IMG/VR virus record: IMGVR_UViG_3300008110_000029
DNA: 64,000 bases
From: a virus
Lineage: Duplodnaviria; Heunggongvirae; Uroviricota; Caudoviricetes
Reading direction: 5' to 3' (one strand)
Shown here: positions 2,406 through 60,768 of the stretch, one piece after another
Layout of the letters: each line of letters starts with the position of its first letter
How positions within the stretch are numbered: position 1 is the stretch's first letter
Made by a program: the position numbers and the translations under genes
Notes under the pieces: generated by a model
Databases searched by the model: none
Seen by the model: the letters and a program-made list of their open reading frames with translations, nothing else
Told to the model about the DNA's origin: nothing

Positions 2406-3434
2406 ATGGTAAAAGCAATACAGAGACTCAAGGATGAAAACACATCCGGTGGTGAGATTGTCGAAACCGATGGCAACACTACTGTTTATGCTAATGATCG
2501 TTTAGTATCTGTTAATACAAGTTTAGTTGGAGAATTCATAGAAGGCGATATACAAGCCAACGATGTAACCGCTAACGGAAGCAATGCAGTGTTTGTTCGT
2601 TTAATTGGAGTCAACTACACAACTAATAAAGACGAAAGTGGTGCTACTAGAATTGGTGGTAGTTCGGACGTTTTTGTTGGAGATGATGTTGATCAAGATA
2701 TTCCTAGTATTAGAGAAGTTGTAACTGCCGACGATCTTGACCTCGATCCTGAAGATCCAGGAGCTGGCCGAAGAAGGTACGAAGAGCTAGTAAGAAATGG
2801 TACTATTAGCAAACGAGAACAAGATGTTGCTTCCCCAAAACCCAGTGGAAAGAAAGATACTGCTCCTAGTAAATTTACCGGGACACCAACAACTGCCTGC
2901 GAAGGAATTGAATTAATAGTTGAACCCCCCGGTCTTCCTCCATTACAGGGATCGGTGTTAGATGCTGTTCAATTGTCACCAAGATTCACTGTTGGAAAAC
3001 TAACTAGAGCTCCTAATATAATTTTTGATCATCCCCTTAAACTTGGTGATTTAAGATTATCATTAGCAGAAACTGTGTGTAATTTAAAATTACTAGCAAT
3101 CAATGTTTTAGAACCTATTTTTTCTAAATACCCAAATGCTTTTATAACAAATACATTTAGACCTGCATCAACAAGTCAAAAAAGTCAACATGTTACAGGA
3201 CAAGCGGTGGATTTGCAATTTAGAAATGTCACTAAAGGTGATTATTATATAATTGCTCAAGATTTAAAAAATTTAGTCCCTTTTGATCAATTTTTATTAG
3301 AATATAAAACTACAGGTACTAGATTACCGTGGATACATATAAGTTTTAGTAAATCCAACAATAGAAAACAGGTTCTTACTTTGCTTAATGATACAACATA
3401 TGGTCAAGGACTAATTGATTTACAGGCACAATAA
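2406..3434 (+). CDS. Hypothetical protein with C-terminal peptidase-M15-like (zinc D-Ala-D-Ala/L-Ala-D-Glu peptidase) motif
   Basis: 342 aa. The C-terminal 'SQKSQHVTGQAVDLQF...WIHISF' fits the M15 'H-x2-G-x-A-x-D ... H' zinc-binding pattern. The N-terminal half is Gly/Asp-rich. Confidence 0.4.
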   Translation: MVKAIQRLKDENTSGGEIVETDGNTTVYANDRLVSVNTSLVGEFIEGDIQANDVTANGSNAVFVRLIGVNYTTNKDESGATRIGGSSDVFVGDDVDQDIPSIREVVTADDLDLDPEDPGAGRRRYEELVRNGTISKREQDVASPKPSGKKDTAPSKFTGTPTTACEGIELIVEPPGLPPLQGSVLDAVQLSPRFTVGKLTRAPNIIFDHPLKLGDLRLSLAETVCNLKLLAINVLEPIFSKYPNAFITNTFRPASTSQKSQHVTGQAVDLQFRNVTKGDYYIIAQDLKNLVPFDQFLLEYKTTGTRLPWIHISFSKSNNRKQVLTLLNDTTYGQGLIDLQAQ

Positions 3435-4089: not shown

Positions 4090-4299
4090 ATAACATATGA
4101 ACGATGATTTAACAAGATTCTTAGTTGGTTTTCTTATAGTCGCGGCTGTGCTTTTTATTATACTACTATGATTTTTAATCTTTTAATTTTAGCATTTGCT
4201 GTATACTGTTTAGTAGTATGGATCCATGCGTTAGTAACATACGATTGGACTAAATTTGAAGAGGATTCAAAAGACGACGATTTTTTGAAACCTTATGAA

Positions 4300-4370
4300 T
4301 AAAGAATTGTTGTAATTCCTTCAAAGTGAAGGCATTCTGGACGCGGGTTCGACTCCCGCCAGGTCCACCA
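4300..4370 (+). ncRNA. ssrA: tmRNA (SsrA) acceptor piece of a permuted two-piece tmRNA: T-arm plus 3' acceptor strand plus encoded CCA
   Basis: Positions 4339-4370 'GGACGCGGGTTCGACTCCCGCCAGGTCCACCA' align with the tmRNA 3' end (E. coli '...GGACGGGGGTTCAAATCCCCCCGGCTCCACCA'). T-stem GCGGG/CCCGC, 7-nt T-loop TTCGACT, acceptor 3' strand CAGGTCC, discriminator A, CCA at 4368-4370. The 5' boundary is approximate. Confidence 0.65.
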
Positions 4371-4491
4371 ATAGAGATGATTATGAACACTACACAAACT
4401 ATAAAATTAGCAGGATTTTTTCTAGGAACGTATATTTTATACAGACTAGGATTAGAAGTTTGGTGTATAGTTTATGGACTACTTTATTGAT

Positions 4492-4738
4492 GGGCCTGAC
4501 ATGGTTTCGACAGGGTGAGATAATAGAGACGGCAACACGGTAGGCGATGACCGTAAATCAAGCAAATCTATAAATGCAAACGATAATGCATTTGACTTTA
4601 CAGCAATGAGCTTCACCGGTAACACTGTTGCCAATGACAGCAAATTTGCTCTAGCAGCCTAAGAAACTGCAAGTCCGGGGTAGCTATACCTTGTAACCCA
4701 AAATAGTGAAAAGCCCCCTTGGGGGCTTTTCTTTATTG
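4492..4738 (+). ncRNA. ssrA: tmRNA (SsrA) coding piece: 5' acceptor strand, tag reading frame (4576..4662, ...ANDSKFALAA-stop) and 3' terminator
   Basis: 4492-4515 'GGGCCTGACATGGTTTCGACAGGG' matches the conserved tmRNA 5' end 'GGGGCUGAUUCUGGAUUCGACGGG'. GGGCCTG pairs with CAGGTCC of the acceptor piece (7 bp, one G-U). The tag frame begins GCA AAC GAT (A-N-D) and ends GCT CTA GCA GCC TAA (A-L-A-A-stop). Confidence 0.65.
4712..4735. terminator. Rho-independent terminator (bidirectional hairpin)
   Basis: 'AAAAGCCCCCTTGGGGGCTTTTCTTT': GC stem flanked by an A-run and a T-run. It lies 3' of the tmRNA coding piece and 3' of the minus-strand gene ending at 4733. Confidence 0.65.
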
Positions 4739-5197
4739 CGGATAGACTAAAACGTTTTCTTCGGTTCCGATAATAGGATCAACTATAAGTTTCCCAAATC
4801 CTAGCATGGTCTGATTAGTGTTAATAGCAATGTCTTTGTTATTGTTGCTGTTGACTATGGCAAGATCAGTGCTTTTCCCAATACCATAAATTTGAGTAAG
4901 GCTGGGCACAATTACACTAGCCCACCGCAGAGCTGTGTCGCCTGTGCTAGTAGGTTGCTGTAGCTTAGGACTGTTGTTTTCCGGTGCGCCTTGCTGTAAT
5001 GCAATTACAGCGGCTACACGAGCCGTGGTGTCGCCACTATTGGCAATAGCTTCTAATGCCTTGTATCGTGCAATTTCTGCTTCTGCTCTTGCTAGGGCAA
5101 TATTTTCTTGGGTTTGGGCGTATTGTTGGTAGTTGTTAGATGCACAACCAGTTAGTGTTATGACGCAGATGGCGCCGGCGAGAATAGTTTTTCTCAT
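4733..5197 (-). CDS. Hypothetical lipoprotein
   Basis: 154 aa. The N-terminal 'MRKTILAGAICVITLTGCAS' is a lipobox signal peptide. An Ala-rich helical segment follows. Confidence 0.5.
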   Translation of the reverse strand: MRKTILAGAICVITLTGCASNNYQQYAQTQENIALARAEAEIARYKALEAIANSGDTTARVAAVIALQQGAPENNSPKLQQPTSTGDTALRWASVIVPSLTQIYGIGKSTDLAIVNSNNNKDIAINTNQTMLGFGKLIVDPIIGTEENVLVYPQ

Positions 5198-7439: not shown

Positions 7440-8307
7440 GTGAAAAAAATCATACTGACACTACTGGCGGCATTGACCGTTTCAGCACATGCAGCGGATC
7501 TAACAGGAGCAGGGGCAACATTTCCTTATCCTATCTATTCAAAATGGGCCGAAGCATATAAAGCAGCAACAGGCATCGGACTCAACTATCAATCAATTGG
7601 TTCAGGCGGCGGCATCCGTCAAATCAAAGCTAAGATTGTAGATTTTGGCGCCAGTGACATGCCACTAAAACAAGACGAATTAGACAAAGACGGTCTAATG
7701 CAATTCCCTGCAATCATTGGCGGAGTTGTGCCGATTGTAAACATTGATGGTATTGGTGCAGGACAACTTAAACTTACCTCAGACATTATTGCTGACATCT
7801 ATATGGGTAAGATCGTCAAGTGGGATCATCCCAGCATCACAGCAATCAATCCAGGATTAAAATTACCTAATGCAAATATCTCTGTGGTTCACCGCAGTGA
7901 TGGTTCAGGTACAACCTTTATATGGACTAACTGGTTAAGCAAGACTAATAAAGAATGGGCAGATAAAGTCAAAGACGGCACCGCAGTCAAATGGCCAATG
8001 GGTGTAGGTGGTAAGGGCAATGAAGGTGTAAGTGCTGTGGTCCAACAACTAAAAAATAGTATTGGTTATGTAGAATATGCCTATGCTAAACGCAACAAGA
8101 TTCCACACGCACAAGTCAAAAATCGTGATGGCAACTTTGTACAGCCTAGCGATGATACATTCAAGGCAGCGGCAGCAGGTGCAGACTGGGCAAATGCTCC
8201 AGGGTTCTATCTATTGTGTACATCTTCCACAATCTGTTATTACATTAGTACAGAATCATTGGAAGACTCAGTTAAAAGATAAGGATAGCAACGCTATTTG
8301 GAAGTAA
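7440..8307 (+). CDS. pstS: Phosphate-binding periplasmic protein PstS; the 3' end appears frameshifted (main frame to 8282, conserved C-terminus continues in +1 frame to 8307)
   Basis: GTG start with RBS AAGGAGA and a signal peptide. 'LTGAGATFPYPIYSKWAEAYK', 'FGASD', 'HRSDGSGTTF' and 'GYVEYAYAK' match PstS throughout. The +1-frame ORF 8077..8307 ends 'LPQSVITLVQNHWKTQLKDKDSNAIWK', matching the PstS C-terminus '[26 protein letters not shown]'. Confidence 0.75.
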
Positions 8308-15366: not shown

Positions 15367-15758
15367 TGAATAAAATTACTTTGGTTACTGAGCCAGATGA
15401 TATACTGGTAGATGCTTTTAGAATATTGTGCGTAAATCTAACCGTAGATCAAACACAGTTTCTTTCTGACATCGTAAATGATATGGAATATATAGTTGAC
15501 ACTGTTGTATATGTTTGGAACGATGGAGATGACGAAAAATGGTTATTTGATAAAAAGACAAAAAGTAATCTAATTGTCTTTAATGCAAGTACAGAATGTG
15601 GAGAGATAAATGGATATCTAGCTGCACAACCAAATTCGTTTTATTTTGGTCCTCTCAGAAATTTATCTCTCGTAAATATTAGAGATATATATGATGCAAC
15701 AGATTTTAAAGATACTTTATTAGAATATATCAGGAAATATGAACAAATTTACGAATAA
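15366..15758 (+). CDS. Hypothetical acidic protein (130 aa)
   Basis: ORF only. Confidence 0.4.
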   Translation: MNKITLVTEPDDILVDAFRILCVNLTVDQTQFLSDIVNDMEYIVDTVVYVWNDGDDEKWLFDKKTKSNLIVFNASTECGEINGYLAAQPNSFYFGPLRNLSLVNIRDIYDATDFKDTLLEYIRKYEQIYE

Positions 15759-15978
15759 ACCTTCTGGTAGTGTAGTTACAGTTAAAGATGGCGAAGATAT
15801 TAATCGTGCTCTTAGACGTTTTAAGAAAAAAATAGAAGAATCCGGCACACTTGACACCCTCCGTAAAAAAGAATTTTACGAAAAACCTACTACAGAACGT
15901 AAGCGTAAAAAATCAGCGGCTAAGGCACGTTGGCGCAAACAATTACGTTCACAAGAATTACCACCTAAACTCTATTGA
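15739..15978 (+). CDS. rpsU: Ribosomal protein bS21
   Basis: 79 aa. '[58 protein letters not shown]' follows the bS21 pattern (E. coli '[60 protein letters not shown]'). Confidence 0.88.
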   Translation: [79 protein letters not shown]

Positions 15979-17667: not shown

Positions 17668-17748
17668 ATAAAAACGCAATTAGCACCCAATGGGCTAATT
17701 GTAACGAGCTCAGTGCTCATTAAATTCTTACTTTTTAAGGAGAAAAAT

Positions 17749-19662
17749 ATGTCAAAAATCATCGGTATCGATTTGGGTACCACAAACTCATGTGTAGCTG
17801 TTATTGAAAACGGCAAATCCAAAGTAATTGAAAACTCAGAAGGCGCAAGAACAACTCCGAGTATTGTTGCTTATACAGACAGCGATATTTTAGTAGGTGC
17901 TTCAGCAAAGCGTCAGGCGGTAACTAATCCCAAAAACACAATTTATGCATCTAAGCGGTTAATTGGACGTAAGTTCAATGAACAGGCTGTTCAGAAGGAC
18001 ATTGACCTAATGCCTTATGAAATTGTCAAGGCAACAAATGGTGATGCTTGGATTCGCGCACAAGGAAAAGAAATGGCACCTCCACAGGTGTCTGCAGAAG
18101 TTCTTCGCAAGATGAAAAAGACTGCAGAGGACTATTTAGGGCATGAAGTTACACAGGCTGTTATTACAGTGCCTGCTTACTTCAATGATAGTCAAAGACA
18201 GGCAACTAAAGATGCCGGTCAAATCGCTGGCTTAGAAGTTCTACGTATTATTAACGAACCTACTGCGGCTGCATTAAGCTACGGTGTTGACAAGACAGAC
18301 AAAGCTGATCGTAAGATTGCGGTGTATGACTTAGGTGGTGGCACATTTGATATCAGTATCATTGAGATTGCCAACGTCGAAGGCGACAAACAAATTGAAG
18401 TATTGTCAACAAACGGCGATACATTCTTAGGCGGTGAAGACTTTGACCAGCGCATTATGGATTATCTGGTTGAGGAATTTAAGAAAGAGCAAGGCATTGA
18501 TCTAACTAAAGATATGTTGGCACTACAACGTCTTAAGGACTCTGCTGAAAAAGCTAAGATTGAATTATCTAATTCTACACAAACTGAAGTTAATCTTCCA
18601 TACATTACTGCCGATGCTAGTGGTCCTAAACATCTAGTGGTAAAAATTACCAAGGCAAAATTGGAACAGTTAGTTGACGATTTAATTCAACGTTCATTAG
18701 AACCTTGTCGTATTGCTATGAAAGATGCCGGAGTTACCGCAGATCAGATCGACGAAGTTATTCTAGTTGGCGGCCAAACTCGCATGCCAAAGGTACAAGA
18801 AGAAGTAGAACGTTTATTTGGAAAAGCGCCACGTAAAGATGTTAACCCAGACGAAGCAGTAGCAGTTGGTGCTGCTATCCAAGGTGCTGTGTTGGGTGGT
18901 GATCGTAAAGATGTCCTATTGTTAGATGTTACTCCATTAACTTTGGGTATTGAAACAGTAGGCGGTGTAATGGCCAAACTGGTTGCTAAGAATACTACTA
19001 TTCCAACTAAGGCAAATCAAATTTTCAGTACAGCTGATGACAATCAACCTGCTGTTACTATTCGTGTGTTCCAAGGAGAACGCGAATTGGCACATCATAA
19101 CAAATTGTTAGGCGAATTTAATCTTGAAGGTATTGATCCAGCACCACGTGGTATGCCTCAAATTGAAGTTACATTTGATATTGATGCTAATGGTATTTTA
19201 AGCGTAAGTGCCAAAGACAAAAATACTGGTAAAGAAAATAAAATTACCATTAAAGCTAATAGCGGCATTACTGAAGATGAAATCAAACGTATGATCGCTG
19301 AAGCAGAACAATATGCAGAAGAAGATAAAAAAGCACGTGAAGTTATTGAAACACGTAATGGTGCATTATCTGAACTGTATACAATTCGCAGAGAATTAGA
19401 AGCAGAAAAAGATCTTGCTACAGAAGAAGAATGGAAAATAATTGAAGATGCACTAGAGGCTGCTGAAAAATTAGTCAATGATAATAGTGACATTGAAGAA
19501 ATTAAGAAAGGTCCTTTCAATGTAGCCGATGCTGCAAAACCTTTGTTTGAAAAAATTAAAGCCAAACGCGAAGCTGCCAAAGCAGAACAATCTGCACCGC
19601 AGCCAACTGATGGTGAAGTGATCGATGCTTCCTTTACAGCAACTGAAGGCAAGGCATCTTAA
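17749..19662 (+). CDS. dnaK: Molecular chaperone DnaK (Hsp70)
   Basis: 638 aa. '[15 protein letters not shown]', '[11 protein letters not shown]', '[11 protein letters not shown]' and the substrate-binding domain are all present. RBS AAGGAG at -8. The start was taken at the internal ATG (17749), not the track's 17713. Confidence 0.95.
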
Positions 19663-19753: not shown

Positions 19754-20191
19754 ATGAATAATAATCAGTTAGCACAAATTACAGCTCTTAACAGAGCTCT
19801 TATTGGATTTGACACACTGTTTGATCAAATGGAAAGACGTTTTTCTAATAGTGTATCTAATAACTATCCACCTCACAACATTCTTAAAACTGGTGAAAAT
19901 CAGTATGAGATTCAATTAGCAGTTACTGGATTTGATAAAACAGAAATTTCTGTTACTGTAGAGGACGGAATTCTTATTGTTAAAGGTGAAAGCATGGCTA
20001 CAGATCATGCGCCAGAACAATACATTCATCGCGGTCTTGCTACTCGCGATTTTGTTAAAGAATTTCCTCTAGCAGAACATATTGAAGTTACTGGAGCGGA
20101 AACCAAAAATGGTATGTTAACCATTAAGTTGGTCCGTAATGTTCCAGAGTCTGCGAAACCGAAAGTCATTGACATTGTAGACATTAAGTAA
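19754..20191 (+). CDS. Small heat-shock protein (Hsp20/alpha-crystallin, IbpA-like)
   Basis: 145 aa. 'PPHNILKTGENQYEIQLAVTGFDKTEISVTVEDGILIVKGE' is the alpha-crystallin domain pattern. RBS AAAGGAG. Confidence 0.8.
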   Translation: MNNNQLAQITALNRALIGFDTLFDQMERRFSNSVSNNYPPHNILKTGENQYEIQLAVTGFDKTEISVTVEDGILIVKGESMATDHAPEQYIHRGLATRDFVKEFPLAEHIEVTGAETKNGMLTIKLVRNVPESAKPKVIDIVDIK

Positions 20192-20817: not shown

Positions 20818-21384
20818 ATGAGTTTAAAAGAAATTACCAAAGATCTTCATCACGAAGCAGAAACAACCCAATTTGCTAAGATGTTACTTAGCGGAAAAAT
20901 TACTAAAGAAGATTATGCCAACTACCTTTATCAGTTAGTATTAATTTATAATGCTATAGAGTTAGGTAATCGAGTAGAAGGCAATTTTAAAAATCTTCCT
21001 GGTTTAGAAAGAACACACGCAATCTATCAAGACTTTATTGAGATCGCAGGTGTTGATCACAATTACAAATGGTTACCTGGAACTATAGACTATTACAACT
21101 ATCTCTTAAATTTAGTTCGTGATCCTGCGCATCGTCCTAAAATCAAAGCTCATCTATATTGTCGACATATGGGAGATCTGTATGGTGGTCAAATAATTAA
21201 AAAACAAGTAGCACATATTAGCAAAGGTCGTTTTTATGATTTTAAAGATGCAGATGCATTAAAAATGTCCATACGTGCAGAACTAACTGATGACCTAGGA
21301 GACGAAGCAAGAGTTGCGTTTGAATGGGCCATTAAAATGATGAGAGAATTGTATAATGAGTCAGGTCTGGAACAGTCTAATTGA
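20818..21384 (+). CDS. Heme oxygenase
   Basis: 188 aa. 'LKEITKDLHHEAETTQFAKMLLSGKITKEDYANYLYQLVLIYNAIE' matches the HO N-terminal proximal-His helix region. Confidence 0.72.
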   Translation: MSLKEITKDLHHEAETTQFAKMLLSGKITKEDYANYLYQLVLIYNAIELGNRVEGNFKNLPGLERTHAIYQDFIEIAGVDHNYKWLPGTIDYYNYLLNLVRDPAHRPKIKAHLYCRHMGDLYGGQIIKKQVAHISKGRFYDFKDADALKMSIRAELTDDLGDEARVAFEWAIKMMRELYNESGLEQSN

Positions 21385-22036
21385 AATACAAAAACTGTTA
21401 GAAAAAAGATTTTCAGAGACAGGCATTGAAACTTTTGAGCCCGGAATGGAAAGATTTAATCAACCGGGTTGGGTAAATAGAGTTTGGTGCAGCGATCATT
21501 ATCGCAGAGCTCATGTCGACGTAGTTGACGCCCGATCCTCAAAGGGCCTTTGGATGATGCATTGCTGCATCTTTCCTCACATACACAATCCTGCTCCTAT
21601 TTTTGGATTTGATGTAATTGCAGGAAAAAATAAAATCACAGGTTGTTTTATAGACTACAGCCCAACAGCTGATAAACAGCATCCTATGATCGAATATTTT
21701 GCTGAAGAAGTCAGTAGATACGAATGGATCCGCAAACGTGAACTACCTGAATGGGCGCAACGTATATTCAGTTCACACATGGTGGCCGCTGGCAATGTGC
21801 AAGAAGAATCAGAATTATCTCAAATTAGCGGTCTAGCGAACATTCTAGTAAATCATTATTTAGAAACAGTAGGCGAAACAAATCACAAAGTTGCAGATAC
21901 AACGTTTGAGCAAAATTATTACGCACAGAATCAAAAACAAAATCCGCACACCCCTAGAGTTATGGTTAGTTTGGGGCTTAGTGAAGAAGATGTTAAGCAT
22001 TTTATTCAAGATTGTTTATTTCCAGAAATAAACTAA
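21356..22036 (+). CDS. Ferredoxin-dependent bilin reductase (PcyA/PebS/PcyX family)
   Basis: 226 aa. 'RRAHVDVVDARSS...LWMMHCCIFPHIHNPAPIFGFDVIAGKNKITGCFIDYSPT' matches the FDBR core 'RRAHLDIVDA...HCVIFP...P.FG.D...G..D.SP'. It overlaps the 3' end of the heme oxygenase gene. Confidence 0.75.
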   Translation: MSQVWNSLIEIQKLLEKRFSETGIETFEPGMERFNQPGWVNRVWCSDHYRRAHVDVVDARSSKGLWMMHCCIFPHIHNPAPIFGFDVIAGKNKITGCFIDYSPTADKQHPMIEYFAEEVSRYEWIRKRELPEWAQRIFSSHMVAAGNVQEESELSQISGLANILVNHYLETVGETNHKVADTTFEQNYYAQNQKQNPHTPRVMVSLGLSEEDVKHFIQDCLFPEIN

Positions 22037-22351: not shown

Positions 22352-23182
22352 ATGAAAAAAATAATAATAACGGGCGTATTGCTGGGATCTTTAACCACCC
22401 CTGCATTTTCGCAAACAACGTATGATAGTAAAAGTTTAGTAGATACCAATAATAACTCAACAAGTACTAGCACGGTTAACAGCACCAGTACCAACACTAA
22501 TAATAATATAAACACCAGTACAGTTAACAGTAATAGTGTCAATACCAATGTAAACCAAAATACCAGTACTAGTACGAGTGTTAATACCAACAACAATATT
22601 AATACCGGTCATACAACCAGTGCTAACACTAATACAAATAATAATACTAATGTAAACACTAGTACCAGTACAGCAACCAGTACCAATCAAAACAATAATG
22701 TAAATCAAAATATCAACAGTGGTGATATGACCAATCGTAATATTAATGACAGTAATATTACACAAAAAGTAATTCAACCTCCACCAACTGCCATTGCACC
22801 TGCAATGATGAGCGGTGGCAATAATGATTTATGTACTACAGGAACCAGTGGTGCTGTTCAAACACAAATATTAGGTGTCAGTAGTGGTGGTACAGTAAGA
22901 GATATGAATTGCGAAAGATTAAAAAACGCCAAGACACTTTATGATATGGGAATGAAAGTTGCTGCGGTAGCTACAATGTGTCAGGATCGTAGAGTTTTTG
23001 ATGCTATGTGGAATGCTGGCACACCTTGTCCTTATGAAGGTGTGATTGGTGAACAGGCTCGTGTAGCATGGAATGAAAATCCTAACAAGTGGCCAAAAAC
23101 TGAGGAACCAAAGAGTGATGATTTCTATAAGAAAACTGGCTTCGGCGCTTTGCTTGGCGCTCTGCTTTTCGCACTATTCTAA
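22352..23182 (+). CDS. Secreted Asn/Thr/Ser-rich low-complexity protein with Cys-containing C-terminal domain and hydrophobic C-terminal tail
   Basis: Signal peptide 'MKKIIITGVLLGSLTTPAFS'. Roughly 110 aa of N/T/S repeats, then 'CTTGTSG...CERLKNAKTLYDMGMKVAAVATMCQDRRVFDAMWNAGTPCPYEG', ending 'GFGALLGALLFALF'. Confidence 0.5.
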   Translation: MKKIIITGVLLGSLTTPAFSQTTYDSKSLVDTNNNSTSTSTVNSTSTNTNNNINTSTVNSNSVNTNVNQNTSTSTSVNTNNNINTGHTTSANTNTNNNTNVNTSTSTATSTNQNNNVNQNINSGDMTNRNINDSNITQKVIQPPPTAIAPAMMSGGNNDLCTTGTSGAVQTQILGVSSGGTVRDMNCERLKNAKTLYDMGMKVAAVATMCQDRRVFDAMWNAGTPCPYEGVIGEQARVAWNENPNKWPKTEEPKSDDFYKKTGFGALLGALLFALF

Positions 23183-24953
23183 CGCTCAAGAACCTGGCGT
23201 TGAGTATACCACCGGCAACATAGTTCTTCCTACTGTTGCTGGTTCCGGAACGACTCCTTGGGTTGGGGGAGTGTATCAAGACAATCTCACCTGCTGGAGT
23301 TGGGGCAATCCAGGATATTGTGGACCAAACGCAATTGTTCGTCCGGGTGGAAGTATAAACTTCTCATTTGGTACGACAGACTTATATCAGAGCCAGGCCA
23401 TAGCAAATGTGTTACCTAATTCCGGTACTGGATTACAAGTTAACGGATATACTTTTAGTTTTATGGCTAAGAATGGTAATGGGTGGGACGATGGTCGCGT
23501 AGATTATCTAAACGCTTATGTGCATTTTAAAAACTCTAATGGTAGCGTAGTAGAGTATGATTCATATGATCTAAACTACAAATTTAATTGGACTAACTTT
23601 AATTTTTCAAGAAATTTTACAACACCATACTCTGCTAGTACATTAGGAAATGTTACTTATGGATTTGTTGGTCGTGATAATAATGGGTGGGCAGGACCTT
23701 ACGGTCCAGAAATTAATAATGTTAATTTTAGTCTAAGATATTCAGTTGATCAATGCGTGATAAATCCTCTTAGTAGTGTATCCTGTACTGGATATGCAGA
23801 AGCATTTAAAAATTATCAATGTTCAATAAATCCCTTATATGATAGTACATGTCCGGGTTACGCACAGGCTTATTATACACAACAATGTTCAATCAATGCT
23901 TTGTATGATCCCACTTGCCCTGGTTATGCGCAGGCTTATTATTCACAGCAGTGTTCAATAAATGCATTATACGATCCAGGATGTCCAGGTTACGCACAGG
24001 CTTTCTTTAATAATCAATGTTCGTTGAATGCACTTTATAATACACAATGCCCTGGTTATGCACAGGCAAAAGTTCTTAAAGATCTGCAGGATAAACAAAC
24101 CGAATCAACGGAAACTGCAACAACGACCAGTTCGCCAATCCCTACATCTTCAACCTCAACTGCACAAGCATCGTCACCAACAGTATCATTGGCCGATCCT
24201 ACTAGAACTGAAACACTTGTGACTACAGATGTGGGCGGAGTTGAATTAACTACCAGCGGTCAAATTAGCATACCCACTGGTCAAACTGCTTCTACTAAAG
24301 AAGCAATAAAAGAATCGACAAGAGAAGAAAATAAAACAGAATCCGCCAATAGAGAAACCGCCAATAGAGAATCTGACAGAAAACGTGTAGATCCTAGAGC
24401 TCTTGCTGTAGCCATGGCAGCAGTGGCAGCTACAGAACGTACAGCATTGGCTACATCAGAACAAGCAATAGTAATGAGTCAAGCTAGTATAGGTCCTAAT
24501 GACGGAACTAGTATAGCATTAGGTTCTGGATTAACTTTACAAAATAATAGATCTCAATCATTTAATGATGACAAGTTTGAAGATAAAAAGGATGAAGGCA
24601 AAAATAATACTGCACAAAAATCTTCCGGACCAACTGATAATATTAATTTACTGATAACACCAATTCAAACAGTTCCAGATACTAATCAAAAGGCAGGACC
24701 TAGTGTAAGAAGAGGTGGAGCAGTAGAAGGTATGGAGGGAGGACCAGATCCTACCACATTAGCAAAAGCACCGATGGATTTTAATCAATATCTTAATTCA
24801 CAATTAAAAGATGCACAGTTTTATCAAAGTAAAGAAATTTATCGAGGACAGCGAACTGTTGATAATCAAAGGTTGTTAAGAGGTTTGTCTGGAGGTAGTG
24901 ATGCACTACACCAAAGAATGATAGAACAACAATATAATATTTCAGGACAATAA
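23118..24953 (+). CDS. Secreted repeat protein with five tandem 22-aa Cys-Pro-Gly-Tyr-Ala-Gln-Ala repeats and Thr/Ser-rich linker
   Basis: The start was taken at the ATG giving signal peptide 'MISIRKLASALCLALCFSHYSNAQE'. Repeats 'CSINALYDPTCPGYAQAYYSQQ' x5, then 'TESTETATTTSSPIPTSSTSTAQASSPT'. Confidence 0.5.
   Translation: MISIRKLASALCLALCFSHYSNAQEPGVEYTTGNIVLPTVAGSGTTPWVGGVYQDNLTCWSWGNPGYCGPNAIVRPGGSINFSFGTTDLYQSQAIANVLPNSGTGLQVNGYTFSFMAKNGNGWDDGRVDYLNAYVHFKNSNGSVVEYDSYDLNYKFNWTNFNFSRNFTTPYSASTLGNVTYGFVGRDNNGWAGPYGPEINNVNFSLRYSVDQCVINPLSSVSCTGYAEAFKNYQCSINPLYDSTCPGYAQAYYTQQCSINALYDPTCPGYAQAYYSQQCSINALYDPGCPGYAQAFFNNQCSLNALYNTQCPGYAQAKVLKDLQDKQTESTETATTTSSPIPTSSTSTAQASSPTVSLADPTRTETLVTTDVGGVELTTSGQISIPTGQTASTKEAIKESTREENKTESANRETANRESDRKRVDPRALAVAMAAVAATERTALATSEQAIVMSQASIGPNDGTSIALGSGLTLQNNRSQSFNDDKFEDKKDEGKNNTAQKSSGPTDNINLLITPIQTVPDTNQKAGPSVRRGGAVEGMEGGPDPTTLAKAPMDFNQYLNSQLKDAQFYQSKEIYRGQRTVDNQRLLRGLSGGSDALHQRMIEQQYNISGQ
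23751..24080 (+). repeat. Five tandem 66-nt coding repeats (protein-level conservation, synonymous divergence)
   Basis: Unit boundaries at 23751, 23817, 23883, 23949 and 24015. Units begin CAATG(T/C)(G/T)... and encode C-x-(I/L)-N-x-L-Y-x-x-x-C-P/T-G-Y-A-Q/E-A. Confidence 0.8.
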
Positions 24954-36624: not shown

Positions 36625-37182
36625 GTGAAAAAAATCGAGGACTTCAATGCCGAAGATCGTATTGATATCGAACTACTCGGAAACAGTATACATTTCTTAG
36701 TGGGAGAAATAAATGAGGACACGATCAAAAGTGCTATAAAATGGATTGTTTACGAAAACCTAGAGTCAAAGGAAAAAACATTAACTTTATACGTTAATTC
36801 AACAGGCGGTGATCTTTATCAAGCATTTGCCTTAATTGATGTAATGCGTAGCAGTAATCACACAATTAGAACTGTTGGTATCGGTGCTGTAATGAGTGCA
36901 GCATTTTTAATTTTTGCCAGCGGTGATCAAGGTGAAAGATACGCAGCTCGTAATACTAGTTTTATGTGTCATCAGTTTTCAGAAAGTATGGATAACAAAT
37001 ATCATGACCTTAAAGCTACTATGCGAGAAAATGATTTATGTAATGAAAAAATGGTACAAATATTAAAAGACGCTACAGGACTTGCTCCTAGCGTAGTCAA
37101 AAAGAAATTACTGCCCGCCAGTGATGTTTATCTATCATCCCAGGAAGTCATAGATCTCAACGTTGCAGATCATCTGTTATAA
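36625..37182 (+). CDS. ClpP-family serine protease (S14)
   Basis: '[21 protein letters not shown]...[18 protein letters not shown]...FMCHQFS' parallels ClpP 'IYINSPGG...TICMGQAASMGAFLL...IHQPLGG' (Ser and His positions conserved). GTG start. Confidence 0.6.
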
Positions 37183-50774: not shown

Positions 50775-51822
50775 CTTTTGTGTTTACATATAAGGTAAAT
50801 TTTGCATCCAAGTCAACTGAACATGCTCCGGAGCAAACAAGCAATCTTCCTTCTGAAAATTTCTTAGTCCAACTCCTTTCTAGTTCTAGATAAAATTCAC
50901 TGTTTAAAATATCATTCCAGTTGTGCGAAGATAATTTTAACTTATCTCCTCCGTAGGTTGTCCATAATTTATAGTACCCGTCCGGATCTGTCGGGTTCAA
51001 TGTAAATTTTGCGCCTGCTATAAAACAACACGGTAATAGATGTGTGTCGGCATCAATGTATAATTCGTCCTTTTCTAATGACTGACATTTTATACAAGAC
51101 TTCTCGGAATTCTCTCCCCACTCTTCAGTTGATTTTTTATCAAGTTTTAGCAGTATTGATTTTTCTTCTTCTATGGTTGGAGGTTCTAATCTTTTTCCGT
51201 CGGCACCAAACGTTTCTCTTCCAAAAAGTTCTTCAACAAAGAATCTATTATTATAGATAGTAAAGAAATTCTTAAATCCCATTTGTTGAGAAAAATTTCT
51301 AGCTTCTTCAATTTGTTTTTCGTTATGTTTAAAAACAATAAATTGCCACCAGGCATGTCCGCCTGCATCAATAAATGCTTTCACATTCTCCATTAATTTA
51401 TTCCACTTCACATTTACTCGATAAATCCAATTTGTATTTTCTAGCCCGTCAATGCCAAAAATAACTATATCAGTCTGATCTAATACAGATGCTAATTCTT
51501 TCCACCATTCGACGGATCTCAATCCTCCGTTTGTTGCTATAGTTAATTTTATATTCGGATTTTTCTTTTTTATTATTCTGCAAACATCTATAAAATTAGG
51601 TGCCGCACACGGATCTCCCATTGTTCCACAAAAATTTATTCTTTCTAAATCATTATAAATTTGATCTGGTATTCTTTCTTCATAGAATTCTGTTGGGATA
51701 TAAGTTTGTTTAAAAAAGCTATGATCTCCTTCGTACCATTCTCTGAGACATTGTGGACAGGCAGCATTACAAATCGTGCTAGTTTCAATTTGTATATTTT
51801 TAATTTTATTGTATTTGGCCAT
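50761..51822 (-). CDS. Radical-SAM enzyme with C-terminal SPASM/twitch-like Cys cluster
   Basis: 'IETSTICNAACPQCLREW' at the N-terminus. The C-terminal 'CIKCQS...LLPCCF...LLVCSGACS' provides auxiliary-cluster cysteines. Confidence 0.7.
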   Translation of the reverse strand: MAKYNKIKNIQIETSTICNAACPQCLREWYEGDHSFFKQTYIPTEFYEERIPDQIYNDLERINFCGTMGDPCAAPNFIDVCRIIKKKNPNIKLTIATNGGLRSVEWWKELASVLDQTDIVIFGIDGLENTNWIYRVNVKWNKLMENVKAFIDAGGHAWWQFIVFKHNEKQIEEARNFSQQMGFKNFFTIYNNRFFVEELFGRETFGADGKRLEPPTIEEEKSILLKLDKKSTEEWGENSEKSCIKCQSLEKDELYIDADTHLLPCCFIAGAKFTLNPTDPDGYYKLWTTYGGDKLKLSSHNWNDILNSEFYLELERSWTKKFSEGRLLVCSGACSVDLDAKFTLYVNTKDAKI

Positions 51823-52444
51823 ATATAATTGCTACTTGTAGAAAATCAGTATTTCCCTCGATAATTAGATTTAATTTTGTATCTAAAATCTGCTGTCTTA
51901 ATTCGTCGGCATTGAATGCTGCTAAGAGCGAATTGTAATAATCGTTTTTAAATAATTCGCTATCTTTTTCAGCCAATTGACCAACAATTTTTTTTGCAAT
52001 ATCTTTGTTTTTAGGACGAACCAAATCCATAATGAATACATTGTTTGAAATATTCTTTACACAGTTCCAAAAAATATTAGAATCATGTATGTGATGAAGT
52101 GTATTAGTTGATATTACGCAATCAGCAGAATCTTTAACATTTTTAAAATATTCGCATCTTAATCGTACTCCACTACTGATATTTTCTACAATAGTTTGTC
52201 CAAGTTCTATCATATACTCACTCGCGTCATAGCCGGTTATTAATAGGTCTGGATATTGCGTCTCTAATGCAAATAGATACGATCCAGTACCACATCCCAA
52301 ATCGACTACTTTACCTTTTTTGAGATTGACATATTTTTTATAAAAGTCAAGAAATCCCTTGATTCCATAATCTCTACTACCGTGATGAAACGCCAATACT
52401 TGATTTTTTTCATTCATTATTTCTGGTTCTAAATGACGTTGCAT
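51806..52444 (-). CDS. Class-I SAM-dependent methyltransferase
   Basis: 'KVVDLGCGTGSYLF' motif I. An acidic residue follows beta-2 ('ITGYDASEYM'). Confidence 0.7.
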   Translation of the reverse strand: MQRHLEPEIMNEKNQVLAFHHGSRDYGIKGFLDFYKKYVNLKKGKVVDLGCGTGSYLFALETQYPDLLITGYDASEYMIELGQTIVENISSGVRLRCEYFKNVKDSADCVISTNTLHHIHDSNIFWNCVKNISNNVFIMDLVRPKNKDIAKKIVGQLAEKDSELFKNDYYNSLLAAFNADELRQQILDTKLNLIIEGNTDFLQVAIIYGQIQ

Positions 52445-53031
52445 ATATTGGATCCTATAATAATTCTATCTTCATTCGAAAGATTGGGTTGAGTTTTATG
52501 ATTTATATACCCGGGAAATATTATTAACATTCCTGTTTTCACGGTAATTTCTTGCTCAAATGATTTGTAACGCATTTGATCAAAATCATATGGCTGGTGT
52601 TTTAGCAAGATAGCATTGGGATGTTCGAATATAATATTTCCACCATTTGTAGGATGCTGAAGATAAAAACTAGCAGTCATGTGTATAGGACTATGATTAT
52701 GCATATCAATAAATGATTCTTGTTCGTATCGATTCACCCACATTTCATAAACACCTGGTTTACCTGATTTACTATATCCTAATCTGTTCCAATATGTTCC
52801 TGCTTCTTTGTTTATAAATTCAGTTAATTCAATAAAGGATGGATCTAAATTTAAATCTCGTTTTATGTTATATGAACATATACCTTTTCCGCGTATGCTC
52901 GATTGATTATTCTTTTTGGTTTCTTCAAACCACGGTTGTATCTTAGGGAATAACATATTCTGAAGTTGTTTAATATCTCCAGAATACTCTGCTGTATGAA
53001 TCAGTATGGGAAAAATTTCTTTAGTTGGCAT
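52429..53031 (-). CDS. Cupin-like protein (putative Fe(II) oxygenase/hydroxylase)
   Basis: His-rich 'MHNHSPIHMTASF' and 'IIFPGYINHKTQPN' suggest a double-stranded beta-helix metal site. Confidence 0.3.
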   Translation of the reverse strand: MPTKEIFPILIHTAEYSGDIKQLQNMLFPKIQPWFEETKKNNQSSIRGKGICSYNIKRDLNLDPSFIELTEFINKEAGTYWNRLGYSKSGKPGVYEMWVNRYEQESFIDMHNHSPIHMTASFYLQHPTNGGNIIFEHPNAILLKHQPYDFDQMRYKSFEQEITVKTGMLIIFPGYINHKTQPNLSNEDRIIIGSNICNVI

Positions 53032-53048
53032 AAGTCTATAAATACCGC

Positions 53049-53681
53049 ATGTATCTTACTTATGTTGACTTACCGCCCGTACCAAAATATATTAGAGATC
53101 AAATAATTCACATAGTAGAACACCCTATTCATAATTTTCAAAACTCGGCATCATTCGTCGAATATGCTAGAAAAAATCTAAACATAGAAGCAAGCCAAGA
53201 AATTATTGATGCTATTGTTGGTATAGAATATAATTCGCAGGATTCTTTGGGTTATCATTTATCTGATGCTTTCAAATATTTTGATGATCTAGCAAATTTT
53301 GATTTTTTAGAAGTTAACGATGAAATTAAAAAATGGGTTAGAGAGAATATCGATCTTGATGTAATACACATTAGCATACAATCAATGCATAGTGGAAAAA
53401 CAATCACCCCACACATTGATGAAATGAGAAATTACGCTTACAATTATATCATAGAAACAGGAGGAGATAAAACCTCCACATGTTTTTGGACTCCAAAGGT
53501 AGAATACAGTCATTTAAAAACATATGCTCAAACAGTATTTCCATATGACAGATTAGATTTAGTAGAAAAAATTAAAATAAAAGAATGCGCCTGGCACAAA
53601 CTAGATACTAAAACTATTCATAGTGTAGAAAATTTAGATCCACATAAAAAAAGAATTTCGTTGTCACTGAGTTTTTTATGA
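53049..53681 (+). CDS. Cupin-like protein, 'HxD...H' paralog family
   Basis: 'ITPHIDEMRNY' (H-x-D) and 'KTIHSVENL'. Confidence 0.35.
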   Translation: MYLTYVDLPPVPKYIRDQIIHIVEHPIHNFQNSASFVEYARKNLNIEASQEIIDAIVGIEYNSQDSLGYHLSDAFKYFDDLANFDFLEVNDEIKKWVRENIDLDVIHISIQSMHSGKTITPHIDEMRNYAYNYIIETGGDKTSTCFWTPKVEYSHLKTYAQTVFPYDRLDLVEKIKIKECAWHKLDTKTIHSVENLDPHKKRISLSLSFL

Positions 53682-54862
53682 CCAATATTATATTTCCCTA
53701 TTCAAAAAATAATCAACAACCGATTCGTAAAATAGAAGAATATACTGACTATGGGTTTATCGAAAATGGTAATCAGTATTTAGATCTAAGTTTGGGTGCC
53801 TGCGGTTGTTTTCCCCTAGGATTTAAAAGAAAAGACATTATTGATTTCGTATCTCTTAGAATGATCAATAATCCATTTTGCGGCGGAGAATTCTACACAA
53901 CAAATGATGCTGTGTTAGAATTAACCGATCGAATTAGTAAAATGAGCGGAGGATACAAAAGTGCATTTGCATTGAGTGGAAGCGATGCGATCGAAGGAGC
54001 ACTAAGGTTAGCTCAAATGTATAACAAAAAAAATAAATTTTTGGGATTTCGAAAATCTTATCATGGAAGTACATTTTTAAGTAGCAGTGTCAGTGATGCT
54101 ACTTATATGACAGATGTATTCGGAAAAGATTCAAGATGTGTCATCAGCGATTACAACTTAGAGATGATTACTGAAGATTTATGTGCCGTAGTTGTAGAAA
54201 CTGCCAGTTGGCAAAACGGATTATACGATCCTGGTGAAAACTTTTGGAACGGGCTTAGAGAAGAATGCACTCGCAAAAATATAGTTCTTATTGTTGATGA
54301 CATCGCCGTGTGCGGAGGAAAGACTGGTTCTTTTTTTGGTTGGACTGGAAGAATAATTCCAGATATTTTTACAATGGGTAAAGCATTAACCGGAGGTTAT
54401 TTTCCTCTCAGTGCCGTTTGTGCTAATCAAAAAATATTTGATAAAATTAAATATGATGTTTTTGTGCATGGCTTTAGTTACAGTTTCAATCTAAGTGGGA
54501 TTTATTCTGCATTAGAATATATGAATATATTAGATCGAGAACAGTTATTAATTAATCAACCTAAATTAGAAAGATGGGGGAAATTAATGTGTCAGCGATT
54601 TAAAGACAAAGAATTAATTAAGGATTATAATAATTATGGACTTTTATTTAATCTAGTATTACTAAACGAAAAGCCCATGGACAGTACATTTGAAAGATTT
54701 TTATATCAATATGGGATTAATGCCGGAATGTGGAACGAAGGTGGAACTGGAGTTTTGTTTGTTATTCCTCTCGATGCACCTTCCGATTGGTTTGAAGACA
54801 TTGAATATCGATTTTTACAAGCCTTAACTGATTACAGATCGATTTCTACCCTCACGAGATAG
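53678..54862 (+). CDS. PLP-dependent aminotransferase, class III
   Basis: 'VLIVDDIAVCGGKTGSFFGW' parallels 'DEVQTGFGRTG'. 'FTMGKALTGGYFPLSA' contains the PLP-Lys. Confidence 0.78.
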   Translation: MTNIIFPYSKNNQQPIRKIEEYTDYGFIENGNQYLDLSLGACGCFPLGFKRKDIIDFVSLRMINNPFCGGEFYTTNDAVLELTDRISKMSGGYKSAFALSGSDAIEGALRLAQMYNKKNKFLGFRKSYHGSTFLSSSVSDATYMTDVFGKDSRCVISDYNLEMITEDLCAVVVETASWQNGLYDPGENFWNGLREECTRKNIVLIVDDIAVCGGKTGSFFGWTGRIIPDIFTMGKALTGGYFPLSAVCANQKIFDKIKYDVFVHGFSYSFNLSGIYSALEYMNILDREQLLINQPKLERWGKLMCQRFKDKELIKDYNNYGLLFNLVLLNEKPMDSTFERFLYQYGINAGMWNEGGTGVLFVIPLDAPSDWFEDIEYRFLQALTDYRSISTLTR

Positions 54863-58900: not shown

Positions 58901-60134
58901 CCATGTGCCACGAAGGAAGTGAATCTTTATAAATCTCCGATGCCTTATTTACAGTAACAATAATGGCATTGGGATTATATTCTTTAATTTTTTTGAACAA
59001 TAGATTCTCATTATATATTCTGTGTCTTAATGGAACAAAAGGTGCTACGGGATCGTAATTAAAAATATGACTAAGATGCACAATAGTAGAAGGCACTGCA
59101 TCTAGCCAATCGCTTACTTCGAGATTTTTGTTAAGAACTAAATCTTGATGAGAAAATTCGAATTTAACGACTTTACTAATGTCACTCCAAATTACAGGAT
59201 CAATCCGTTGTTCAACACCAGTTAACGTTATCCACTCTTGTTTTTTATTTTTTAAAAAACTTGATCTTTTATTAACATACGTTTTTACAAATTCTAAATA
59301 ATTCAACCCGTCCCAATTCTTTATAATATATTCCATACACTCTAAAGCAAACAAATTATAATCTACAAAACGAACAACGGTATTTTTATCATATCCATAT
59401 TCTAAAAGATATTCTATAAACTGCAATCCACTTGCTTGAATTACTAATTGTTGTATTGGTGTACTACAATTAATTTTTATAACTTCTTCTGTATTGTAAG
59501 GATAGAATAATGTTTGTGAGGCAACCTCGTTTTTGCCGTATAGATAATCGCACGATTTTATAAACGCAGGTTCATAATTAGGATAATAGTATCTTTTGTT
59601 TTTTCTGAAACGATCTGCAAATGGTTTCACAAATTTATTATTAGCAAACGCAACACTAAGAATGTTCCAGCCGTGCCATTTGTGTTTATATTGACGTTCG
59701 GTATCGCCACCGGTTACCCAGATAGGAGTATAATCGTCGTGAATATTTTCTTCACTGCGTCTGGGTGCTATCTGTGTATGAGCTGAATAATATTCAAATT
59801 TTCCTATAACAGGACAACCTAATTCTTTGTAAGTTTTTAGATTGATTATGTAGCATTGTTCGTGTAATTCATAATAACCATCATCCCTATCTGGTATATG
59901 ACCCCAGATAAAAAATTCTTTGCCGCTGTAGACTTCCTTTTCGACTTCATGGAAAAATTCATCACCGTTGATGAACTCTGTGCCTGTACTTAATACAACT
60001 GCATGTGTATATTCTTTGGCGGCTTCTTGTAACATAGCATCTTCATCTAATCCTTGAATAATATTAAATCCGTGACCAAGAATCTTACTATAGACTATAT
60101 CTGAAGATCCTTCGGGTGTATTAAATTTTACCAT
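58878..60134 (-). CDS. Hypothetical protein (418 aa)
   Basis: ORF in operon context. No motif. Confidence 0.4.
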   Translation of the reverse strand: MVKFNTPEGSSDIVYSKILGHGFNIIQGLDEDAMLQEAAKEYTHAVVLSTGTEFINGDEFFHEVEKEVYSGKEFFIWGHIPDRDDGYYELHEQCYIINLKTYKELGCPVIGKFEYYSAHTQIAPRRSEENIHDDYTPIWVTGGDTERQYKHKWHGWNILSVAFANNKFVKPFADRFRKNKRYYYPNYEPAFIKSCDYLYGKNEVASQTLFYPYNTEEVIKINCSTPIQQLVIQASGLQFIEYLLEYGYDKNTVVRFVDYNLFALECMEYIIKNWDGLNYLEFVKTYVNKRSSFLKNKKQEWITLTGVEQRIDPVIWSDISKVVKFEFSHQDLVLNKNLEVSDWLDAVPSTIVHLSHIFNYDPVAPFVPLRHRIYNENLLFKKIKEYNPNAIIVTVNKASEIYKDSLPSWHMDGEWNDL

Positions 60135-60768
60135 ATTGATTATTATAACATCTTACTAACATTTCACAAAACTCGGCAGTTCTATGTCCCAATATAATGT
60201 TAGCAATCATATGCACTCTTGGTTTACTGCTACGATTAAAAACGGCATGTTTTTTGCTTATATTGATCATAATTATCTTTCCTTCTTTCCAAGGAACTTT
60301 CTTATCTTCTATAAACATCTCGCAATTATTTGGATGAGCTATAGCAATATTAATTGGTAGAATAGATAATAATGGATCCATATCCAGTGGAATCTCGCCG
60401 TCGGTGTGCCAGTTTATATTACTCCACGGTGCCAATTTCATAAAACGTATTCTTGTATATCTTTCTGCAGGAAATTGATTCTTCCAAAAATCTGTAATTA
60501 CAGGACACTTGTATGCTAGATCAGTATATTGATAAGGAGCATGATATTCATTATAACCATACCTGTCGGCAGTGTATGTTTTATCAATACCCAATCCGTG
60601 TAAACAACAACCGCTCCATCCTTCGCTATATCCTTCTCTATATTCTTGATAATGAGGCTCTGCTTCTAATGCCTGTTGTTTCCAGATATCTGCATTAAAA
60701 GAAATATCTAATTCTAACCAAGGTATATCTGATCTTAATATTTTACGTGCTTGTTCTATGCTATCCAT
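60121..60768 (-). CDS. Cupin-like 'HxD...H' family paralog
   Basis: 'NINWHTDGEIPLD' and 'ISKKHAVFNRS'. Confidence 0.4.
   Translation of the reverse strand: MDSIEQARKILRSDIPWLELDISFNADIWKQQALEAEPHYQEYREGYSEGWSGCCLHGLGIDKTYTADRYGYNEYHAPYQYTDLAYKCPVITDFWKNQFPAERYTRIRFMKLAPWSNINWHTDGEIPLDMDPLLSILPINIAIAHPNNCEMFIEDKKVPWKEGKIIMINISKKHAVFNRSSKPRVHMIANIILGHRTAEFCEMLVRCYNNQYGKI

Follow-up and report, generated by a model that had tools for sequence, protein, structure and literature searches.

What kind of transfer-messenger RNA (tmRNA) gene does a virus carry, does it make a working RNA, and to whom does the gene belong? These questions are raised by a locus near the start of a 64,000-nucleotide (nt) stretch of DNA (the window) from the tailed-virus record IMGVR_UViG_3300008110_000029, where a tmRNA gene in two pieces is accompanied by an unusually long tag and by a segment between the pieces that itself seems to contain a gene. 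Phages are known to carry tmRNAs, although to our knowledge the reason is not known. Positions 4308-4737 of the plus strand very probably hold a working ssrA gene that belongs to a large tailed phage and is circularly permuted, with the betaproteobacterial type of structure. Our confidence is high for the identity and architecture of this gene, good for its phage origin and for the coding nature of both the tag extension and the open reading frame (ORF) between the pieces, and low for the specific functions of these two additions.

All diagnostic elements of a circularly permuted two-piece tmRNA gene were located by reading positions 4100-4900. A first-pass annotation, made from the sequence, had described the locus as a phage-borne gene of this kind, and the sequence features that it listed lie where it placed them or a few bases away. 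The T-arm, the acceptor 3′ strand and CCA come first in the gene, and the tag frame and the strand that forms the 5′ side of the acceptor stem follow, which is the order that defines the permuted form. The annotation had proposed ARAGORN and the Rfam covariance models as a check, and both bear out its reading. ARAGORN found one gene in the whole window, a permuted tmRNA (tmRNA*) at 4278-4753, with a tag identical to ANDNAFDFTAMSFTGNTVANDSKFALAA. The Rfam model RF04321 (tmRNA_permuted) matched over positions 1-213 of 213 with 152.6 bits (gathering score 47, E 2.6e-30), and RF01850 (beta_tmRNA) over positions 1-331 of 331 with 135.9 bits (gathering score 84, E 2.4e-41); such agreement among detectors is far beyond chance. 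A permissive Rfam search of the locus revealed neither a riboswitch nor any further family, the extra hits being sub-threshold matches on the terminator hairpin.

The annotation had likened the permuted order to that typical of alphaproteobacteria and a few other lineages. The structural subtype is instead betaproteobacterial, because RF01850 is the best model of its tmRNA clan, the remaining clan models having scored lower and been removed. The betaproteobacterial two-piece tmRNA was reportedly described by Sharkady and Williams in 2004 as the third permuted lineage. The window gene shares with it the order of acceptor piece, intervening segment and coding piece, the acceptor stem formed in trans, the G3.U70 pair, the encoded CCA, helix P2, pseudoknot PK1 and the 3′ terminator, as well as the resume context UAAAU-GCA-AAC-GA and a tag that ends in FALAA. 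It differs in being phage-borne with a signature nearly absent from bacterial genomes, in having an intervening segment of 121 nt that contains a gene, as opposed to about 24 nt in the model consensus, in a middle portion of P2 that is not paired as in the model, and in a tag of 28 codons rather than the usual 10.

The acceptor piece (4308-4370), as delimited by the Rfam alignments, by covariation in the family and by sequence conservation that ends right after CCA in the sibling strain L003, begins with the distal P2 strand UGUUG (4308-4312), followed by a local hairpin CCUUC/GAAGG (4318-4322/4328-4332), the proximal P2 strand (4333-4339), the T-arm GCGGG-UUCGACU-CCCGC (4343-4359), the acceptor 3′ strand CAGGUCC (4360-4366), the discriminator A4367 and the encoded CCA (4368-4370). 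The coding piece (4492-4737) was delimited by Rfam and by the tmRNA 5′ end GGGCCUGACAUGGUUUCGACAGGG, which starts at 4492 after a gap of 121 nt, just as the annotation had it. Its acceptor 5′ strand GGGCCUG (4492-4498), in which G3 pairs with U4364 as the G3.U70 pair, is followed by two P2 strands (4511-4517 and 4533-4537) and the PK1 hairpin (4538-4553), all three placed by the Rfam alignment, then by the tag frame and by a pseudoknot (4677-4707) identified from the family alignment and its covarying helices. In this pseudoknot, S1 joins GGGGU (4677-4681) to ACCUU (4688-4692), and S2 joins GCUAU (4683-4687) to AUAGU (4703-4707). The terminator scan also confirmed the rho-independent terminator that had been noted downstream, a bidirectional element at 4708-4737 comprising a hairpin (4708-4731) with a 10-base-pair (bp) GC-rich stem and a 4-nt loop, and a T run. 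The terminator is shared with a convergent gene (4733-5197, minus strand), which encodes a 154-residue protein that has a lipoprotein-type signal peptide (LTGC lipobox) and no confident family.

Pairing of the two pieces was assessed in an alignment of 33 distinct family sequences from which the intervening segment had been removed. The 7-bp trans acceptor stem, which the annotation had recognized as pairing between the tmRNA 5′ end and the acceptor 3′ strand, is 100% paired in the family with three compensatory pairs, as is the T-arm, likewise with three; the proximal P2 is 99.5% paired, again with three compensatory pairs, and the distal P2 strands UGUUG/CAACA are complementary and invariant. 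A G.U pair occupies the third acceptor position in 33 of 33 sequences, and a G.U at this position is an identity element for alanyl-tRNA synthetase. Over all pairs, 93.7% of cells are paired versus 81.9% in shuffles, and the covariation score of 0.264 was reached in 0 of 500 column shuffles (0.068 ± 0.008), with slid controls at or below 0.048. The helices between the pseudoknot loop and its downstream partner, 8-9 bp in length, differ in sequence between many family genes in a covarying manner. When the two pieces were folded together, as the annotation had suggested, the trans acceptor stem and the T-arm were formed. The partner that it had assigned to P2, the 3′ region of the coding piece, was incorrect; the Rfam alignment joins 4308-4339 to the 5′-proximal segment 4511-4537.

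A sibling strain on contig L003 provides a natural comparison. It is about 99% identical to the window over the neighbourhood and over both mature tmRNA pieces, and its identity to the window stops exactly after CCA and restarts about 4 nt before G4492, the 121-nt segment in between being replaced by an unrelated non-coding sequence of 87 nt. The mature RNA differs at few positions, among them two in pseudoknot S2 that have changed together as a pair (GUUAU/AUAGC), and the position of the terminator is occupied by a different GC hairpin and T run. This pattern would be expected if the two pieces were the functional product and the spacer between them were discarded, and it is indirect evidence of two-piece maturation. 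Comparison of L003 6519-6960 with window 4278-4753 thus finds spacer and terminator hairpin each replaced wholesale, differences that indicate cassette-like recombination at short non-essential segments; the 87-nt spacer type was also found with six other tags. Past its porin gene, L003 has additional genes for a metallophosphoesterase and a glycosyltransferase.

The tag reading frame (4576-4662, plus strand) consists of the resume codon GCA4576, which is the first of 28 codons, and a UAA stop at 4660-4662, and reads ANDNAFDFTAMSFTGNTVANDSKFALAA-stop. It can be divided into an extension module (4576-4629; ANDNAFDFTAMSFTGNTV) and a canonical module (4630-4659; ANDSKFALAA). The annotation had left open whether the functional tag comprises 28 or 10 residues. 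In the alignments with the two Rfam models, GCA4576 falls on the resume codon (consensus UAAAUGCAAACGA), and it is preceded by U-5 and A-4 (4571-4572), while GCC4630, at the second AND, has C4625 and U4626 at these places. In E. coli, nucleotides upstream of the resume codon set the tag frame (PMC2481249). The window frame thus combines an alanine resume codon, the U-5/A-4 context and 28 codons leading to ALAA-UAA with the coding signature described next.

Tags in the family are either canonical 10-mers or 22-33 residues long. Among the matches listed, the core AN[AD][DN][TA]F[DE]Fx-A[ML][SN]F[TSN]GN[TS]V is common to 19 unique genes, whose tags continue with a short linker and close with (F/V)ALAA. 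The conserved extension is N-terminal and 18 residues long, with the motif ..TFDFxAMSFTGNTV. Over its 18 codons, 49% of pairwise codon differences (420 of 856) are synonymous in the tag frame, compared with 12% and 10% in the other frames, and the variable columns are distributed over the three codon positions as 6, 5 and 13. From this pattern, the extension is evidently under purifying selection at the peptide level and therefore translated. Because of the resume context and model alignment at the first AND, and the in-frame coding signature of the extension, we conclude that the tag very probably has 28 encoded residues and not 10. The last 10 codons do amount to a complete canonical tag, and the whole tag of L029 is exactly ANDSKFALAA, so that translation might instead resume at GCC4630, with the first part of the frame serving as untranslated RNA. 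This arrangement is scarcely credible, given that GCC4630 lacks U-5 and A-4 while GCA4576 has both and aligns to the Rfam resume sites, and that the third-position variation and synonymous excess of the extension are confined to the tag frame.

The annotation had also regarded the tag as internally duplicated. The first and last 30 nt of the window tag share 17 of 30 positions (codon-shuffle P about 0.016), other in-frame registers sharing at most 12, and a duplication within an ancestral tag is possible. Support for it is weak, however, as many relatives hold the extension without a second AND (...GNTVSGKSKVALAA, ...GNTVGGRVALAA), and for this reason the conserved feature is the N-terminal extension together with ALAA and not the repeat. 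A codon-degenerate pattern for the extended-tag motif matched 31 of the 125 family loci collected and none of 185,579 bacterial and archaeal species genomes; tblastn did not detect it in any GenBank phage, and the tag motifs were absent from the searchable supplements of the tmRNA-database paper and of the paper on phage Melnitz. The extended-tag motif therefore seems, as far as these searches reach, to be restricted to this group of phages. That the extension constitutes an additional recognition module for an adaptor or protease is a guess.

The selection on the extension also bears on whether the locus might be a decaying copy or one that does not tag proteins, either a relic or a decoy that titrates SmpB or alanyl-tRNA synthetase (AlaRS). 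A precedent exists in the RNA of mycobacteriophage DS6A that consists of a tRNA-like domain only (PMC4131195), the tag is atypically long, and no phage SmpB was found among the window ORFs scanned. The tag frame is nevertheless intact, the peptide-level selection on the extension requires translation, and PK1, the resume context, the post-tag pseudoknot and the terminator have all been kept, with compensatory changes. We consider a relic or decoy highly unlikely.

The second addition lies in the intervening segment (4371-4491, plus strand), whose 121 nt are outside the mature RNA and are replaced in L003. The ends of this segment are complementary (AUAGAG/CUUUAU; fold z = -2.4) and could form a closing stem. 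It is almost filled by an ORF (4377-4490, plus strand) for a hydrophobic protein of 37 amino acids (aa), MIMNTTQTIKLAGFFLGTYILYRLGLEVWCIVYGLLY, which begins 6 nt past CCA and ends with a UGA stop 1 nt before G4492. In the family, spacers range from 25 to 256 nt and are reassorted with tag types in cassette fashion; among the matches listed, 66 unique spacers form 50 sequence clusters. At least 60% of the length is filled by a sense ATG ORF in 15 of these 66, as against 5.4 ± 2.1 in dinucleotide shuffles and 2 in the antisense direction. Within IMG/VR, only L036 has exactly the same spacer start as the window. A metagenome scan with a codon-degenerate pattern for the C-terminus of the ORF found 13 contigs, on which the ORF exists in 11 distinct nucleotide versions within tmRNA genes with 8 different tags. 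In ten versions of equal length, codons 4-28, which were constrained by neither search pattern, have 53% of their differences (335 of 632) synonymous in frame, versus 17% and 8% out of frame, with 17, 12 and 22 variable columns at the three codon positions. One further version is shorter by a clean deletion of a single codon, and stops interrupt the alternative frames. We conclude from this in-frame synonymous excess that 4377-4490 is a real, conserved micro-protein gene, and the tmRNA precursor would therefore serve as an mRNA as well.

A more prosaic possibility is that the ORF is no gene at all, and has been kept open by chance or by constraints of RNA structure and a conserved UGAU before the RNase P site. 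This UGAU is found ahead of G+1 in spacers that have no ORF, too, pairing is required of the spacer ends, and the comparison of window and L036 considered by itself has no codon bias (3 synonymous and 16 non-synonymous differences). Moreover, L003 is devoid of the ORF, the Shine-Dalgarno sequence is weak, and 1 of 200 shuffles did reach the observed count of 15 in the ORF-enrichment test. This explanation is nonetheless unlikely in view of the synonymous excess among the ten versions, which lies outside the region of the search patterns, the one-codon indel, the stops in other frames, and the presence in other spacers of micro-ORFs behind a perfect AAGGAG, including one group of hydrophobic ORFs of 22-24 aa. 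Furthermore, a free-standing window ORF has a homologue in the spacer ORF of L066 (54% identity over 35 aa, E 2e-14), so one micro-protein family can evidently sit either beside or inside the tmRNA gene. The free-standing ORF (4168-4302, plus strand) encodes 44 aa with a hydrophobic N-terminus, MIFNLLILAFAVYCLVVWIHALVTYDWTKFEEDSKDDDFLKPYE, is invariant in sibling contigs, has its stop 5 nt before the acceptor piece, and is probably co-transcribed with the tmRNA. PHROGs contains no family for any of the spacer micro-proteins. Some spacers, of 155-256 nt, have different contents: that of L124 has two micro-ORFs in tandem, those of L029, L125 and L007 have soluble-looking ORFs of 56-65 aa, and the L007 ORF and a CPxC-containing ORF of L012, L015 and L116 read through into the coding piece.

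To whom the gene belongs can be judged from the distribution of its relatives. A signature for the coding piece, validated on the window, matched viral contigs of IMG/VR, at least 119 in number and up to 270 kb long. ARAGORN called 107 of the 108 family genes that it detected permuted, and 89 gene sequences were unique among the matches listed. A combined pattern for acceptor and coding pieces with a gap of 15-45 nt matched no family locus, because the spacers of the family are longer. The narrower signature TGGTTTCGACAGGGN{13,17}GGCAACACGG matches about 85 of the IMG/VR loci listed, and in the 185,579 species genomes it matched two contigs, both of them short contigs of metagenome-assembled genomes (MAGs). 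Both contigs carry tRNA genes, and one, L127, has phage-like content in the form of an endolysin-like gene; the two are probably mis-binned viral DNA. The other, L126, is labelled as belonging to a 'Bifidobacterium' MAG and is probably a mis-binned phage fragment. In L126 the tmRNA gene lies beside a tRNA gene (2944-3018, minus strand) with the anticodon CUA, which ARAGORN called tRNA-Pyl and which resembles an amber suppressor. The scans of the species genomes thus found no real bacterial relative of the family, and the gene, though structurally of the beta type, is no member of the bacterial lineage.

Genomic context leads in the same direction. Through an exact match to a neighbouring protein, the locus was traced to many metagenome contigs, among them one of 138 kb and another of 0.2 to 1 Mb. 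Genes of the 138-kb contig that lie immediately before the window hit families of phage exonuclease (phrog_298, 192.6 bits), tail spike (phrog_2234) and virion structural protein (phrog_14154), and endolysin-like proteins are encoded downstream of the tmRNA gene. The window is gene-dense, with many micro-ORFs and 31-40% GC (36% overall). It encodes NrdA and NrdB, glutaredoxin, AhpC, an AhpD-like protein, PstS, a phosphate porin, an Rv2179c-type exoribonuclease, GMP reductase, DnaK, Hsp20, heme oxygenase and bilin reductase; this auxiliary content does not by itself settle phage origin. A megablast search with 25 kb matched nothing among GenBank phages, nor did tblastn with a 626-aa ORF (23073-24953), which also belongs to no Pfam or PHROG family.

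One could suppose that the gene is a host ssrA on a chromosomal contig or at a prophage boundary, since prophages and islands classically integrate at tmRNA genes (PMC11915505). The window DnaK is 69% identical to a gammaproteobacterial DnaK, AhpC, PstS and porin genes are present, and neither a capsid nor a terminase gene was seen in the sequence covered. We regard a host gene as very improbable, because the narrower signature that is so frequent in IMG/VR finds but the two small MAG contigs among the species genomes, phage-type genes flank the locus on both sides in the same 138-kb contig, and the 626-aa ORF is without a database match. The 36% GC, gene density, abundance of micro-ORFs and ribosomal protein S21 gene are, furthermore, as reported for large aquatic phages. 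That the tmRNA locus is phage-borne, as the annotation had claimed, is therefore well supported by the upstream phage-type genes of the 138-kb contig, the downstream endolysin- and ClpP-like genes and the virus-enriched signature. The strongest argument for phage origin is this last one, because the signature is frequent in viral contigs and nearly absent from species genomes. The host is probably Gram-negative and betaproteobacterial (Burkholderiales sensu GTDB), on two grounds only, the tmRNA type and the porin gene.

Ribosomal protein S21 (15739-15978), DnaK (17713-19662) and Hsp20 (19754-20191) form, with a ClpP-family protein and the tmRNA, a translation and proteostasis gene set. The ClpP-family protease (36625-37182, plus strand) is full-length (PF00574, 103.8 bits) and also matches prohead-protease PHROGs. 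Its role might be to mature the capsid or, alternatively, to take part in degrading tmRNA-tagged proteins.

Phage tmRNAs are not new in themselves, and the novelty that the annotation implied for the permuted form was overstated. In a survey of 18,146 genomes, 402 had a tmRNA, and 53 of 133 unique tmRNAs were two-piece by ARAGORN, 50 of these being aquatic (PMC9004378). Methylophilales phage Melnitz and Pelagibacter myophages possess an alpha-type two-piece tmRNA with a glutamine riboswitch (PMC9004378). Like these, the window gene is a permuted ssrA in an aquatic phage rich in auxiliary metabolic genes (AMGs), with a presumed role in ribosome rescue and proteolytic tagging during infection; unlike them, it is of the beta type and lacks a riboswitch. 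Term searches of the text and supplements of that study turned up neither a long conserved tag nor spacer ORFs, and what the window tmRNA gene shares in sequence with GenBank phages is confined to the tRNA-like domain of their tmRNAs.

One-piece tmRNA genes are known from mycobacteriophages of cluster C, such as Bxz1, and from Bacillus phage G (PMC4131195), and huge phages have tmRNA and SmpB (PMC7162821). As in those phages, ssrA is part of a translation-support set, here with S21, DnaK, Hsp20 and ClpP. Their tmRNAs have the standard non-permuted form, in contrast to the permuted window gene, and Bacillus phage G was matched in the T-arm region only. Cargo in tmRNA genes also has precedents. 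The 2025 tmRNA database holds 79 phage sequences and includes a tRNA-Ala gene and a repetitive element inside intervening sequences of permuted genes, and intron-form tmRNA genes carry homing-endonuclease ORFs (PMC11915505). The window gene resembles these in that a segment removed from the mature RNA hosts other cargo. It differs in what is hosted, a very small and conserved gene for a membrane micro-protein, which does not look mobile and lies between tRNA-type processing sites, with no self-splicing intron or endonuclease. A term search of the database paper brought up no case of a permuted tmRNA gene whose intervening sequence has protein-coding cargo, and in the open-access full-text literature we found no description of a virus-restricted beta-type lineage, a conserved extended tag or protein-coding micro-genes in spacers. 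The virus-enriched lineage, the extended tag and the gene in the intervening segment thus appear to be new here.

How might such a gene work? Starting from the architecture, helix covariation, tag-peptide selection and viral context described above, the steps of processing, charging, tagging and proteolysis can be proposed on the model of tmRNA biology. A single precursor, probably including the upstream micro-ORF, would end at the terminator (4708-4737). Processing of the tRNA type would trim it to CCA at 4370 and RNase P would cut before G4492, releasing an acceptor piece of 63 nt and a coding piece of about 245 nt that would remain paired via the 7-bp acceptor stem and P2. The tRNA-like domain would be charged with alanine, as expected from G3.U70 and the discriminator A, and the charged tmRNA would enter stalled ribosomes with SmpB, presumably that of the host because none was found among the window ORFs scanned. 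Translation would then resume at GCA4576, adding alanine and 28 encoded residues that end in ALAA. ALAA is a classical ClpXP-type degron.

We hold tentatively, and with considerable doubt, to the further idea that this ssrA gene is a composite expression module, in which production of the spacer micro-protein is coupled to tmRNA processing and the extension acts as a phage-specific second recognition module. The processing that separates the two pieces would at the same time free the spacer as a mini-mRNA for the membrane micro-protein; alternatively, translation of the spacer ORF, which would terminate on top of the acceptor 5′ strand, 1 nt short of the RNase P cut, might gate folding and maturation of the tmRNA. 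The extension, for its part, might route phage-tagged proteins, unlike those tagged by the host, to a particular adaptor or protease, possibly the phage ClpP.

Several observations weigh against a functional, phage-borne ssrA gene with these additions. The entire functional case is built from sequence. The middle segment of the Rfam P2 (14-17 with 96-99) is only 68.9% paired in the family, although the invariant local hairpin CCUUC/GAAGG (4318-4332) may replace it. The promoter scan found no sigma-70-like promoter directly upstream of 4308, which leaves the 5′ end of the acceptor piece undefined. Neither capsid, portal nor terminase genes were seen in the window or in reachable flanking contig sequence, which past the end of the window amounted to 3-kb contigs only, and no SmpB domain was found in the roughly 60 window ORFs scanned with Pfam. 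Finally, the spacer ORF has a weak ribosome-binding site in the window gene (GAG) and is missing from the sibling L003. We retain a functional phage ssrA gene as very probable in spite of these points.

Other parts of the window deserve a brief description. Genes for heme oxygenase and a ferredoxin-dependent bilin reductase stand side by side (20818-22036), a pigment-pathway AMG pair in a genome whose tmRNA type points to a non-cyanobacterial host; such pairs occur in cyanophages and other marine phages. Positions 38000-64000, mostly on the minus strand, make up a block of lower GC (29-34%) that encodes seven or more radical-SAM enzymes, some of which have B12-binding domains, as well as a methyltransferase (51806-52444), 2OG-Fe(II) oxygenases (52429-53031 and the Asp/Asn hydroxylase-like 60121-60768) and a class-III aminotransferase (53678-54862). 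The block is biosynthetic-looking and is an unusually large cluster for a phage. Compared with the sibling contig L001, which encodes a PstS of 341 aa, the PstS gene (7440-8307) lacks about 158 nt internally; the deletion shifts the frame, so that 280 aa are followed by garbage, and the original C-terminus survives in another frame (8077-8307). The shortened PstS is either a strain-specific pseudogene or an assembly artefact.

Even if the functional readings of its additions fail, the locus is a clean additional example of a two-piece phage tmRNA. The peptide-level selection apparent in the extension is direct evolutionary evidence for tagging by a phage tmRNA, and it implies that the information in the tag goes beyond the ALAA degron. 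The protein-coding micro-genes in the spacers would offer a naturally occurring link between the processing of an RNA and the expression of a micro-protein. Because the lineage is common in viral contigs and nearly absent from cellular genomes, our analysis suggests that this type of tmRNA gene has long been maintained and has diversified within phages, rather than having been borrowed repeatedly from their hosts.

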